From NCBI RefSeq assembly GCF_054482595.1, contig NZ_JBTHVH010000004.1: DNA of 64,000 bases; one strand, 5' to 3'. The position numbers were made by a program. Origin of the DNA: a plasmid. Positions 15,001 to 24,000 of the stretch are shown piece after piece (within the stretch, counting starts at the first letter, position 1; each line of letters opens with the position of its first letter).

Positions 15001-18000
15001 CGGCTCAATGGGAGATACTGGCAGATTTGTTGGATGCCTTTCTTGGCAGTGATGAGGATAGCGAAGATTATCACGATGCTTTGGCTGAAGAGATTGAAGG
15101 TATTGCATCAAAAGTATCCGATGACGTGAAAGCCGAATTCGGTGCTTCTGAATGGGATATCCCTGATCTCCTTATCGATTTGAATGTTTACAATGAGGCT
15201 TTGTCTCTGAGTCATTCAATCGGTAGCGACTTGTCTGTTTTACAGCAGGTTAAAATGCGTGGCCGAAACAAAACTCATGAGCGTGGAATTACCTTCGATG
15301 GAAATCGATTAATTCTGTCACCAATGGGAGTTCGTGATGTCTTCAGAGCTCAAAGCGAATCTAAAAATAGAGGGCATGTTGGCCTCGTATTAGTTCGTGA
15401 TATTTCAGCGTCAATGGCTAATGATGAAAGATATATTCATGCCATTAAGTCAGATCTTGCTTTATCGATGGCCGCTGAAAGTTTGTCAAAAATGCATGTC
15501 TCCAATATAGTCTTTCCCTTCAAGGAAAGTGAATTTGAGATTATCAAAACGTTTGATCAAAGCGTTGAGGAATCTCTATCGAAATTCACTCTTGGATGTA
15601 AGGGTTATTATACCCCTACGGGATCGGCTTTAATGGCAGCTGTTGATCTGTTACTTGACAGCCAATTCGATAGGAAAATAATTTTTCTTATAACTGATGG
15701 TTATCCGAATAAATCGGAATTTACTATCGGCGAAGTTATGGAAAAGGCTAAATGTAATGGAATAGAAATCGTTGGTGTTGGTATTAAGACTGATGAAATA
15801 ATTGGTTTTGAAACGGACACTTTCGTAACAGTTGATGATACTTCTTTATTGTCTATTGAAGTCAGTAAGCTAGTTCATCAAATACTTTCTTAATAAACTC
15901 TACCCAATCGGGGCAAAAGGCCCCGGTGGGTCTTTTTGCTCCATGAAGGAATAAGGAGCAAAATATGACTCAGATAAAAACTTACCGTGTAGAACATGAA
16001 AAAGTCGGTGCGATGCATAAAGTCCGTATTTTCGGACGTGTTGGTGAAGTTATAAGCAATGATAGCCCTCAGGAAAGAATCTTCCGCGAAGTCACTATAG
16101 CGGAGGGTAATAGCCAGCAGGCTGCGTTACTTGTAGATAACTACATACAGTGTCTTGAGAATAATGGCTTCACGACTGAAGCATAAATGTTGAGGGCCCC
16201 CGGGCCCTCTTTCTTAAATTCTGCGTTGTGGGTTTCTCCCTGTCTTCTGCACCGCAGAAGGCATTGAGAAACTCACAATGCCAGATAAGAGAGATCATCA
16301 TGACTTATGCATCCCCGGCTCTTCGTCGTAATCCACAGGAAGTATCTGAACACTTTATTAAACTCGTTCATGCTCGAATTGCTGAAGTGTCTGGCTGGAA
16401 GTATATATTCGAAAGAATACCTGCTTTCAAAGACGCTTGTGCAAAAGCCCCGAGCCAGGTTCCTTGCCCGTTTACTGGCGCAGGGAAATCGAAGTTTCGT
16501 TTCCGACAAAAAGACCTTTATACCGGATGTGCGATCCATAATGACTTTCCGGTAAATGAGTTTTGCGACGGAATTGATGTTCTGGCGAAATATTATGAAT
16601 TAAGTAAAACGCAGACTTGCAAAAAGATTCTCTCAGATTTTTTCGGGATGGATCTGCATGCTCCGTTAACTGACGCCGACATTGAAAATGAACGACGCTA
16701 TAAATCAGCAGTTCGTGCCACAGAAACTCTTGACCGAGAGGAAGTGGCAAAGCGAATGCGAAAACTTGATGTGATGTATCACTATACCGGTGAAATCAAG
16801 CCTAATACTCCTGTTGCTTTGTACCTCCGTAATCGTGGGATCTCCCGCTTACTGAGTCACTTACCAAAGGATTTAGGCTTTAATAACCGGATCTACTATT
16901 GGGATAAAGATAAGCAGAAATCGATTATCTATCCGGGAATGATTGCGATCTATCGTGACACCCGAGGTCGGCCTCTGACTATTCATAGAACATACGTAGA
17001 CAAAAATGGTGATAAGGCACCTGTAGAAAATCCAAAGCTGATGATGAAGCCTCCTGCCGATATGACAGGTGGCTCAATTCAGTTGTTTGACCCTCACTAT
17101 GATTCAGGTAGTTCGACCTGGACACTGGGAGTGGCTGAAGGGATCGAGAACGCGCTTTCTGTTGTAGAAGCGACTTCAACACCATGCTGGGCAGCCAGCT
17201 CCGCATGGTGCCTTGAAAACGTTACTGTTCCTGATTTTTTACTGCCTCCGCCGGATGTAAAATCTATAAACTTTTATATCTGGGCGGATAAGGATATTGC
17301 TAACTCACAAGGCACTCGTGCCGGTATTGAAGCTGCTCAGCGACTTCAAAGCCGCATGGTTGAGTTTTTGGCTAAACGATATCCCGCATCAAAGCTGACA
17401 ATTGAAGTCTTCGAACCAGCACAAGATATTCCTGATGGGAAAAAGGGTATCGACTGGAACGATGTTCTCCAGTTAACAGGGCAGGATGGATTCCCGATTC
17501 ACTGGGCTCCTGAATGTCTTAATCAGCTGTAACAACGATAACTCCCCCGCTTTTTGCGGGGGGGGTTATCTTATCAATATTATATTTTAAAATTGTATTG
17601 ATAAGATAACCGCTTTCCTTCGTGATAATTACCTGCCTTTAAGGTCTTTTCACGGCTGAGATGCTTGCTCAGTTAAATAAATGTGCGGTACTACTGGCTA
17701 TGGTCGGTTGTATGACATGGTTATTCCATAAACTATTAAAACCCATAACGGGAGTATTACCGTTATGGTGATGCTCGTCGTTTTACATCGGAGAGCATTT
17801 TAATGAATTTTCAAATTAACGAAGTTTTTAATAAATTTGCTGCTGTTATAAAATCGCGCATCGTCAATGAACCATCGTCATGCTATTTGCTGCATGATAA
17901 TGAGATAGATATAACGATTTTGAAACATAGCATATTAGAAAATGACAGAAACCTGTTGTACGTAGTTCGTCCTTCAGGAACGTGTTTGTTGCGTTGTGAC

Positions 18001-21000: not shown

Positions 21001-24000
21001 TCTATATCAGATGCGGACAAGTTTATAAATCATGTTCGTCGCTATTTAGCAGGCAGGGTAATGAAGAGGCGGATATACGCTGAATTAGATGTTTGTGAAG
21101 AAACATCAAGTATTTCACTAGTGAACTTAGGATGCTTTACGTCTCCTCTGCTCGTTACGGAATATCAAATGTTTAAGCCACACTCTTCAGGGTTATATCG
21201 AAAAGCTATAAACAACTCCTTAAAACAGTTCAAACCAGAAATGCATGTACCTTCTGAAGAACTCTTTTATAATTAATCTAACCCATCCGGGAACCTGCTT
21301 CCCGGTGGGAAGCACTTCCTTTTTAGTCATGAGGTAGTGTAAATGTTTAAAGAATCTGACCACGTGGAATTTGTTAGTGCCTTTCTTTATCAAAATTTAG
21401 GCCTTAATGTTTCCGCTGACGATATAACCGTTCAATTATCTGATACTTCGTTCGACAAAGTAACCTTTGATTACGATGTAGATATCGATAATTTAAATTG
21501 TATGTTGGATCTCTACATATCTGAGCTAATAAAGCACAACGCATCTTACTCCGATTCTATTCTTTTGAAACAAAAAATAATTTATTTTCTTGGAGTATTT
21601 AAGAATTTCGGATTTTTTACGTTTGATATTCGCGGATATAGTAATACTTTAAGCCCAGTTAAAGTTATTGATATTGTTTCAATGATTATTAATGACTGTG
21701 AAGAGTTATCTAAAGCTAATTCTTCTACTGATGCTATAAGAAATCTTTATCTCGATAAAATGAAGGTGGATGGGAAAGTGTTAGTTGCGAAATTTGCACT
21801 TAAACAGTTTTTTCATTCCGACTTTGGTGACTTTATCTCATTTGTCGAGAAAAGAATTACAGATTGTCTTAATGAAACTTTAAGGATTATCAAAGCTGTT
21901 GAACATGGCTTTGTACGTGTAGGGCAGCATAAGATTAATCGCCGTATTAATGATGACTTAAAGTTATGCATTGATTTCAATACTGATGATTATCCGGCAA
22001 ATATGCCAGATATATATATTAAGTTTAACGATACATTTGATGGGAACGGGGCGTTATATTGTGACAATGATGCCCTCATATCCCTCTATACCGATGTTGC
22101 TTCAATTATCAATGTGCCGGTGATGATGGAAGTAAGATTGATCAATAAAAGAGGGCGTGTTGTCTGTGATTCTTCGCATTCAACTTACGTATCTCTCGAA
22201 AGTAATGACCGATACAGAGTAACTGATCGCACATTACTAATAACTGAAGCTTTTGACGATTTTCGTAACGCGTCTCAATGATCCTTTTGCTTCAGTCCAA
22301 AAAAGTAACTTTGGTTGGCTGAAGACACTTGTCTATGACAATGTAAAATCTGTCGCTGGCATCTTCTTTTAGCTTAACCAAATTTTTATCTAACCCAGTG
22401 GGGAAGTCGCTTCCCTTCTGGGGCACTTCCTCTCAAATTCGAGGTAGTGTATATGACACATTCATCTGATGATAAAAACTATGTCCGAGCAGTTCTGAGT
22501 TATCTTGGCATAGATTTTGATGAGGCGGATATAGTATTAAGTGTTTGCCATTGTCAAAGTGACGAGCTTTCTTTTACCTGTAATATCAAAGCTATTGAAC
22601 TCAAGAATGTTGTTGATTTATATGTCGATAGTATCTCTGAGAATGAAATAGAAGCTTTAAACAGAGAATCTTTAAAATCGCGACTCTGTTACTTTCTTGA
22701 GGTGTTTGACGCAGTCTCTGGTCAGTACCTTGAAATTTCAGGAAAACACTTTGCAACTAGTCGTTTTGAATATGATGATGTTTGTAGTGAAGTTCTTAGC
22801 ATGTCTAATGATGTTTCTCAGTCGAAAGGTTATGACCGGGATGAATATAACAGACTGATGCAGGTTGATGGTCAGGTTATGATTGCCCGTTTTGCTTTGC
22901 AACAGTTCTGGGATACTCATTTTATTGGACTAATAACATTTGTATCTGAGTCTATAACATCGAGCCTCTATAAAGCTTATGAAACTTTTAGTGATATTAG
23001 TTTGGCTTGCTATAAACTGAGTGAATATTCTTATTCACGCTCTATCAACAGTGAATTGACCCTTAATATTTCACTTAAAGAAAATGACTTCTGTGAGGAC
23101 CTATCTGATTGCTATATGGAAGATGAGGCTTTACCTTCTGGTAGGGTAATTTCTCGACGCAACAATGACTCCATAATAAGTATTTATGAGAGCTATGCTG
23201 CGGCTTCTTATATTCCGATGATTGCATCTTTGGAAGTCGTTGATGAATACGGCGAAGTGGTTACTGACCTCTGCCATACCGTTTATGTTTCAGAGTTAAC
23301 CGGTGGGCGGATTAAAATCCACGACCGTAATGACTTAGTATCTGAAGTTTTCGATAACCTAAGAAATTTAAATCTTGCAGTTGGAGATTCAGTTTCACAA
23401 GCTGCTTGATTCTTTCCCTGATTTTGATTTTTTCTCACATACTCTTATGGCACGGTTTCCGTGCCTTTTTTTTGCCTCGCTTACAAGCGTCTACTCCTCT
23501 TCTACCTATCCCACCTTACATCACCACTTAAAATCTATCTTTCTAATTCCATTATCCTTTTCGTAGCCTCTAATGCTCTGGTATGAACATACTCTTTAAA
23601 CTCAAAAAAGTGCTATTAACGAAAAAAAATCCCTAAAGAGATTTGTATACTGTTCTCAACCAAGGAGAGCTCATGAATGAACTAAAATCCAAAAACGAGA
23701 ACAGTACCAAAAGCAACTTTCCCCCGGTTGATAATCAGTTTTGCTTTTACCATGTTGATTTCAGCATAGAACGACTACTTTCTACGGCCGAGGATCTCCA
23801 GCTTGAGTACATCTTCCAGAAACCTGGAAGTGAAGTAAGAAAGGATTTGGTTGAGCGATTCGAACGTGGAGAGCGCTTTGTTACAGCTTCACACTGTGAC
23901 AATTTCTGTGAAATCCTTGGTTGTCAAGGCCATCAGGAAAATGCATAAACCCATAAACCTACATTTCCACTTTTAAGGATGTTCACTAAAGAATGATTGG

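Follow-up and report, generated by a model that had tools for sequence, protein, structure and literature searches.

The window analysed here, a stretch of 64,000 nucleotides (nt) from a large IncHI2 resistance plasmid (NCBI RefSeq assembly GCF_054482595.1, contig NZ_JBTHVH010000004.1), carries on its plus strand a tandem array of five genes, the products of which we designate A to E. The five open reading frames (ORFs) code for A (18403..19281; 292 amino acids (aa), charge about +2), B (19352..20287; 311 aa, neutral), C (20356..21276; 306 aa, charge about -1), D (21343..22281; 312 aa, charge -14) and E (22453..23409; 318 aa, charge -30). A has orthologues in IncHI1 plasmids, in pPSV (typed as IncHI1B) and in backbones further removed, and E is the best conserved of the five and the sole type present in every array. 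The array is preceded on the same strand by a gene for a 173-aa protein (17803..18324). The starts of the five ORFs given in an earlier note on this DNA were confirmed, and RefSeq has the same frames; all six ORFs, the 17803 gene included, are annotated as 'hypothetical protein' in the matching IncHI2 plasmids. More than 1100 IncHI2 plasmids, from Escherichia, Salmonella, Enterobacter and related genera, match the array region at 99-100% identity, and the best-matching record for the window is named plas1-MCR.

The homology of the five proteins was examined with profiles built from orthologous arrays, which were gathered from the IncHI1 plasmid pHCM1 (L012), the IncHI1B-typed Citrobacter plasmid pPSV (L011), a further Salmonella lineage (L003/L005), IncHI2 variants (L007/L008) and the deeper lineages L014, L015 and L018. 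Plain BLAST linked D to E over their full length (27% identity, E-value 3e-37), B weakly to C, and no other pair; a distant B-type protein (L018) matched C-type proteins with an E-value of 3e-9. The homology of the 21343 and 22453 products along their length, claimed in the earlier note, was thus borne out, and the common leader that it had seen before their start codons is also there, both genes carrying GAGGTAGTGTA[A/T]ATG. Profile comparison with hhalign extended the similarity beyond this pair and connected all five proteins: D-E gave a probability of 100% (E-value 1e-52, 305 columns), B-C 98.4% (E-value 9e-15, 242 columns), A-C 96.5% (E-value 9e-10, 234 columns), A-D/E 92% (E-value 6.6e-7, 220 columns) and BC-D/E 42% (E-value 2.7e-4, 238 columns). 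As controls, 20 reversed-profile comparisons, 5 comparisons with the group of a nearby Tus-like protein and 20 with four unrelated neighbouring gene groups, the 17803 gene among them, were run; the best of these reached an E-value of 0.004 and a score of 28.6. All significant alignments among the paralogues are colinear and start within residues 1-19; the N-terminal pattern noticed earlier in the five proteins is real and aligns as their first helix. The 17803 ORF, which the earlier note had wished to see compared with the five, showed no detectable relation to the family with hhalign against all family profiles (E-value 0.045 or worse), and the candidates for further members nearby, this ORF and the ~300-aa neighbours at 8846, 10214 and 26984, were excluded in the same way.

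Structure models were built independently for the two halves of the family. The AlphaFold model of E, made from D/E-type sequences only, has a predicted local distance difference test (pLDDT) value of 89 and a predicted template-modelling score (pTM) of 0.83, and the AlphaFold2 model of C, made from A/B/C-type sequences only, a pLDDT of 83.5 and a pTM of 0.80. The order of helices and strands is the same in both. A Foldseek search with the C model retrieved B-type proteins together with a 292-aa Salmonella protein, assigned to the A type from its length alone, at template-modelling (TM) scores of 0.6-0.69 (0.66 for the 292-aa protein), and also V9SIJ7, the IncHI1 orthologue of E, with an E-value of 4e-4. 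Since the profile links exceed the controls, the two models agree and the Foldseek searches cross-match the two halves, the five genes form a single family of paralogues.

The predicted fold is of the alpha/beta kind and made up of several parts; the model of E contains a central helix of 45 residues. Beyond the start methionine, only L12, F39 and D190 (A numbering) are invariant across the five paralogues, and no recognisable catalytic motif is formed by the positions invariant in all five; neither a signal peptide nor a transmembrane segment is visible in the family proteins. The small number of invariant positions without a catalytic motif, together with the lack of an enzymatic domain, suggests that the family members are binding or structural, non-enzymatic proteins. 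Their net charge ranges from +2 in A to -30 in E, which has an isoelectric point of 4.3; A-C are near neutral and a strong negative charge is confined to D (-14) and E (-30). One strongly acidic E-type copy, with a charge of -21 to -33, was found in every lineage.

No member of the family gave an accepted match to Pfam-A, NCBIfam (E-value up to 1), PHROGs or PADLOC. The known anti-restriction and anti-defence families (ArdA, ArdB/KlcA, ArdC, PsiB and others) gave no Pfam-A or NCBIfam match up to an E-value of 1, and the domain-library scans found no nuclease, ATPase, NTPase or membrane domain. Against the PDB, the profiles of either family half had no match by sequence and the predicted structure had no solved relative by fold. 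The family is narrow: the D/E profile retrieved 41 matches, mostly fragments, from 1.84 billion representative proteins and the A/B/C profile 24 from a collection of 5.8 billion clusters. Every genomic context examined for the family was an IncHI-type conjugative plasmid backbone. With no known domain and no solved fold relative, the family counts as undescribed and stands well apart from those known, in agreement with the earlier note, which had recognised no domain and proposed a candidate new family. A search of the literature on the RefSeq protein accessions, on DUF3150 and on IncHI function and transcriptomes found nothing specific to the array genes. Two matches were rejected. The match of the N terminus of D to phrog_10163 (a 303-aa profile, E-value 0.005) was judged to be chance, other members matching no PHROG and a tblastn search of E against 50,697 phage records being empty, and P0054, a 2078-aa Gram-positive surface protein with nine matched stretches, was judged a repeat or composition artefact.

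Remote relatives appeared only at the level of predicted structure. Foldseek against AFDB50 retrieved uncharacterised ~300-aa proteins of Dickeya (A0A5B8HP55), Brenneria (A0A421DJK9), Photorhabdus (A0A6L9JU38), Klebsiella ('NgrC', A0AAN2CGC7), Serratia and Pectobacterium, with E-values of 1e-9 to 1e-5 and TM scores of 0.5-0.65, and two of them were matched by both the E and the C models. These proteins resemble the array proteins in length and overall predicted fold but share only 10-14% identity with them, and the D/E profile had not retrieved them from the 1.84 billion representative proteins. No literature was traced for the name 'NgrC', to which no characterised role is attached. The E model also matched A0A5Y2S904, a 708-aa protein of Salmonella houtenae annotated as containing DUF1738 (Foldseek E-value 5e-4, TM score 0.38 on the query). 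DUF1738 is the N-terminal single-stranded-DNA-binding domain of ArdC, and in A0A5Y2S904 a related fold may be joined to a domain of the anti-restriction type.

The genes A-B-C-D-E stand in the same order in IncHI1, IncHI2 and the pPSV-type plasmid, with one-to-one orthologues of 47-64% identity; for the genes on either side of the array the corresponding range is 52-80%. Because the orthologues pair one-to-one in the same order, the duplications are old, the five types predating the IncHI1/IncHI2/pPSV split. Between two IncHI1-type lineages the ratio of non-synonymous to synonymous substitution rates (dN/dS) is 0.13-0.24 for the array genes, compared with 0.15, 0.09 and 0.19 for three neighbours, the toprim, 17803 and Tus-like genes respectively. 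The low ratios mark the array genes as real genes under selection, which by this measure is purifying and slightly relaxed. The proposal of the earlier note, a local duplication with rapid divergence, is not supported by these results. In PLSDB, A was found in 1399 records and E in 1406, next to 1400 with the toprim gene (at least 60% identity), and on these counts the array is core in R27/R478-type plasmids.

Across backbones the picture is different, and the copy-number variation that the earlier note had suggested looking for does exist: lineages were found with 0, 2, 4 or 5 copies, the deeper ones carrying A-C-D-E, B-C-E-E' or A-E. A sister backbone, that of the Klebsiella IncHI1B/IncFIB plasmids, has a toprim gene 45% identical to that of the window and the order toprim gene, 17803 homologue, strong terminator and downstream genes; in L019 the 17803 homologue follows directly on the toprim gene and is itself followed by the terminator. 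Neither an array nor a remnant of one was found in this sister backbone, which is still typed as conjugative. A contig of Photorhabdus tasmaniensis (L004 9130-11741) retains only D/E fragments, as ORFs of 198, 92 and 183 aa, and lacks the 17803 homologue and A-C. In the Salmonella plasmid pTB601 (L010 9001-10536) a deletion joins the N-terminal part of D in frame to the Tus-like gene, and the resulting 511-aa ORF is annotated by RefSeq as 'DNA replication terminus site-binding protein'. The deletion has removed E and the intervening small ORFs, so an IncHI2 plasmid survives without them. In CP100014.1, an IncHI2 plasmid of E. coli, an IS1 family transposase is annotated under the array match, which is split in two, a natural insertion in or next to the array. 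Given the absence from a conjugative-typed sister backbone, the variable copy number, the decay in Photorhabdus and these natural insertion and deletion plasmids, the array is an accessory module rather than an essential one.

Individual array genes have histories of their own. In two IncHI2 variants (L007 10001-10939 and L008 9596-10534, against window 21343-22281) D has a synonymous divergence (dS) of 0.30, against 0.005-0.05 in its neighbours, and 14% protein divergence; a dS so far above that of the neighbours in near-identical backbones indicates that the D allele was replaced singly by recombination. In the Photorhabdus contig a well-scoring leader motif, of the kind described below, lies at 9437-9501, ~500 nt upstream of the truncated D ORF call, and for this reason the D gene is probably frameshifted. 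Two AFDB entries of Salmonella typhi, Q9L5F1 (149 aa) and Q9L5F0 (183 aa), presumably from the original R27 annotation, represent the E orthologue as two ORFs; the gene of pHCM1 is intact (318 aa), and the split is either a frameshift of the plasmid or an old sequencing error.

We then considered how the genes are expressed. Four of the five array spacers are 66-78 nt long and nearly filled by two hairpins. A consensus scan, the only method applied here, found 15 promoter-like sites where 21.6 were expected and no sigma-70-like site inside the four short spacers, and the promoter-like sites beside the spacers of the window are not conserved in IncHI1. Canonical sites of a hairpin followed by a U-tract occur only at the two flanks. 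A terminator-like hairpin of nine pairs, eight of them G-C, follows the toprim gene (17542..17564, plus strand) and is the likely upstream boundary of the unit, and a strong intrinsic-terminator-like hairpin with a run of eight T follows E (23449..23473, plus strand) and is its likely end; a counterpart is kept after the E orthologue in pHCM1 (L012 9001-9028). Within the array, hairpin B carries the U-run in its loop, and it is the alternative helix alone that resembles a terminator. From the short spacers and the predicted terminators flanking 17803-23409 we infer that the 17803 gene and A-E form one operon with structured intercistronic leaders, and the independent transcription units of the earlier note are not supported. 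For R27, a study reports higher expression of most non-tra genes at 37 C and their derepression in an htdA mutant (PMC7366339).

Each spacer contains two adjacent hairpins, the first of which (hairpin A) is G+C-clamped and has the form CCC..GGG / CCC..GGG; the second (hairpin B) contains the Shine-Dalgarno (SD) site in its 3' arm and ends 0-8 nt before the ATG. The earlier note had assigned to each gene a G+C-rich hairpin of its own; such a hairpin is indeed found in every spacer, but the hairpins proved to be parts of a two-hairpin leader that masks the SD site. On the plus strand, the leader of the 17803 gene (17743..17799) consists of hairpin A at 17743-17768 and the SD-masking hairpin B at 17770-17799, with a minimum free energy of -27.2 kcal/mol and a z-score of -5.7. 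The leaders of the array genes lie at 18351..18400 for A (z -3.4, with GGAGG paired), 19292..19351 for B (z -7.3), 20298..20348 for C (z -6.6), 21282..21340 for D (z -4.3) and 22394..22450 for E (z -5.4). In the minimum-free-energy folds (z -3.4 to -7.3) the SD site is 75-100% paired. A covariance model (R1) with the leaders of D and E only as seed sequences matched the leaders of B (E-value 9e-7), C (E-value 7e-6), DUF3150 and VWA, each match ending exactly at the start codon. In the leader of B, GTGATCC/GGATCAC is replaced by GTAATCC/GGATTAC in IncHI1, a compensatory change.

The two-hairpin leader is not special to the array. The same architecture was found on the plus strand at 9717-9775, 10154-10213, 12612-12675, 13823-13880, 15901-15964 and 16187-16299, before about six upstream genes (starts 9776, 10214, 12676, 13881, 15965 and 16300; AAA ATPase region, DUF3150, VWA and others), so that about 12 consecutive plus-strand cistrons are preceded by it, whereas no such leader was found in the window before the genes downstream of 23409 or the Tra2 genes. 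The z-scores are -3.3 to -7.3 for the leader-bearing genes and -2.3 to +1.9 for the downstream and Tra2 genes. The leader is kept in all IncHI-type lineages examined despite quite different sequence, including the array-less Klebsiella backbone (L019 10237-10298 and 5370-5432), and no Rfam family matches it. Pair counting on a plain MAFFT alignment of the leaders was weak, as the hairpin registers slip, and an alignment fitted to the covariance model was used instead. In this alignment, 80.7% of the cells pair, compared with 71.5% in shuffles, and 53 cells are changed on both sides where 21.7 are expected; for helix 2 the paired share is 81.6%, with changes on both sides in 7 of its 9 pairs. 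The covariation score of 0.353, computed on this model-fitted alignment, which favours structure, compares with 0.200 in shuffles, was reached by none of 500 of them, and falls to 0.11-0.22 in versions with shifted partner columns. In 30 of 41 leaders the anti-SD strand is, in addition, specifically complementary to the leader's own hairpin A; the mean duplex energy is -11.7 kcal/mol with its own hairpin A against -7.35 kcal/mol with that of another leader. This pairing capacity suggests that the leader adopts two alternative conformations, and it may act as a two-state translational gate.

The array lies downstream of the Tra2 genes trhU, trhN and trhI, which represent the end of Tra2 in the window, within a ~24-kb run of plus-strand genes. 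It is preceded, in this order, by three hypothetical genes, an AAA_5 ATPase, a DUF3150 protein, a VWA protein, a 73-aa ORF, a toprim protein (DUF7146 and Toprim_3) and the 173-aa ORF at 17803, which has its own two-hairpin leader, is not a member of the family and probably belongs to the same operon. It is followed by small ORFs, the Tus-like gene (PF05472; ~320 aa, at 25994, 2.6 kb downstream), an integrase and hha. The annotation of the 64-kb window contains neither the origin of transfer (oriT) nor Tra1. The G+C content is 0.32-0.38 inside the array (0.32-0.36 across 19250-22250) against 0.42-0.46 in the flanking backbone genes; low G+C of this kind is typical of targets of H-NS silencing, and hha is carried near the array on the same plasmid. 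Directly 3' of the toprim terminator, a long A+T-rich palindrome (17564-17611) with 23-nt arms of 87% complementarity, 2 nt apart (GGTTATCTTATCAATATTATATT / AAAATTGTATTGATAAGATAACC), has no counterpart kept in IncHI1 (L012) and could be an operator, a recombination site or a structural site. The VWA/CobT-like protein (window 13881-15893, 670 aa) has a middle stretch, at about residues 250-400, that is extremely acidic, of low complexity and rich in Asp, Glu, Ser and Thr; a 165-aa ORF (14632-15129) overlapping this gene in another frame is probably spurious.

As for function, we tentatively favour the reading that the array codes for accessory proteins without enzymatic activity that bind or decoy host factors, with the acidic E as their core, and we regard this as a possible rather than a probable explanation. 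The proteins would help the plasmid to establish or persist in particular hosts, like anti-defence or stealth proteins. The always-present, strongly acidic E type would be the core member, possibly a nucleic-acid mimic, and the near-neutral A-D types would have diversified towards other targets. A-E would make up the distal part of one operon, which comprises the 17803 gene and A-E and is bounded by the predicted terminators at 17542 and 23449. Each cistron would be translated from the conserved leader: after hairpin A, the SD site is paired with the anti-SD strand within hairpin B, and this strand could switch to hairpin A. A conflict-related role (anti-defence, defence or exclusion), as put forward in the earlier note, is possible: the copy number of 0 to 5, the swap of the D allele and the one member that is always very acidic count for it.

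Several observations weigh against such a role and against the host-factor reading more generally. The array is strongly conserved, at least 99% identical in 1112 of 1125 IncHI2 plasmids, has no PADLOC match, and shows no gene-wide positive selection in the dN/dS comparison, where an active arms race predicts otherwise. No annotated homologue bearing on function was found. The cluster adjoins Tra2 and the IncHI oriT is located in Tra1, as we take from the R27 literature, so the array would be outside the leading region, the usual place of anti-defence genes on plasmids. Acidity is limited to D and E, and the operon and the translational gate are themselves predictions. A more far-reaching version would make the array a new class of host-interaction proteins, in which the acidic E mimics nucleic acid or in some other way disarms DNA-binding defence or silencing factors of the host and A-D widen the range of targets, shaping the host range of IncHI resistance plasmids, and would make the leader a new RNA switch (anti-SD against anti-anti-SD) gating ~12 cistrons, with temperature or upstream translation as its possible trigger. 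We consider this version unlikely; if true, the leader switch would tie in with the temperature dependence of IncHI biology.

Among the other explanations, the paralogues might be distinct subunits of a hetero-oligomeric complex for DNA processing or plasmid establishment, formed among themselves or with the toprim, AAA, DUF3150 and VWA proteins. The strand and the probable operon shared with the toprim and 17803 genes and the leader style common to the whole 9776-23409 cluster fit such a complex, as do the one-to-one orthologues under purifying selection and the complementary charges, from +2 in A to -30 in E, and the 45-residue central helix of the E model could mediate oligomerisation. We nevertheless hold it to be doubtful, the variation in copy number (0, 2, 4, 5) and composition (A-E, A-C-D-E, B-C-E-E') fitting poorly with a fixed stoichiometry and the sister backbone keeping the entire toprim/AAA/VWA module without any family member. 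That the locus is of the poly-immunity type, each paralogue neutralising a different interbacterial or plasmid-borne toxin, would account for tandem divergent paralogues without catalytic motifs and for a copy number that varies with lineage. It is quite improbable, however: no toxin-like gene or domain was found among the neighbours (toprim, 173-aa and small hypotheticals, Tus-like), the family is bound to one plasmid backbone and not to toxin loci, and typical immunity proteins are two to three times smaller than the ~300-aa array proteins.

A defence or exclusion system directed against phages or competing plasmids is scarcely probable either. The architecture of a paralogue array and the other defence cargo of IncHI plasmids speak for it, but PADLOC gave no match, the members have no nuclease, ATPase, NTPase or membrane domain, and none is effector-like; entry exclusion in particular is unlikely because no transmembrane segment or signal peptide is visible. 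The idea that the array genes are extra copies of the nearby Tus-like terminus-binding protein drew on the similar length, on the Tus-family gene 2.6 kb downstream and on one tblastn match under a 'terminus site-binding' annotation, and has next to no probability left. This match is the pTB601 deletion chimera of the D N terminus and the Tus-like gene, hhalign of every family profile against the Tus-like group gave E-values of only 0.3-0.8, and PF05472 was not matched, and on these grounds the idea was refuted.

Plasmids of the IncHI1 and IncHI2 groups are widely reported to carry multidrug resistance in typhoid Salmonella and mcr-type colistin resistance in Enterobacterales, and ~5 kb of their conserved backbone is occupied by a five-member family without known relatives, present in about 1400 sequenced plasmids and absent from the mainly-Klebsiella sister backbone. 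If the array affects establishment or host range, as its reading as a set of accessory host-factor binders or decoys would have it, it offers a concrete and easily deletable target for understanding plasmid spread. The confident models without a solved relative make the family a candidate for structure determination, and the repeated leader masking the ribosome-binding site offers, independently, a plasmid example in which post-transcriptional control across a whole operon can be tested.

Three known systems invite comparison. The acidic DNA mimics of the ArdA/Ocr type are, like the E-type member, plasmid-borne, non-enzymatic and acidic, but the array proteins have no sequence or fold similarity to them, types A-C are not acidic, ArdA is about half the length of E, and the array locus is, presumably, outside the leading region. 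The poly-immunity arrays of polymorphic-toxin systems consist, as does the array, of tandem, divergent, non-catalytic paralogues that vary in copy number. Leaders that sequester the SD site, such as RNA thermometers and ermC-type attenuators with competing hairpins, have, as here, a ribosome-binding site paired just before the start codon and an alternative upstream partner for the anti-SD strand. Unlike these, the element described here has no evident leader peptide and no Rfam match and is repeated before about 12 consecutive cistrons, and its hairpin B mostly encloses a U-run, so that the alternative helix is terminator-like.

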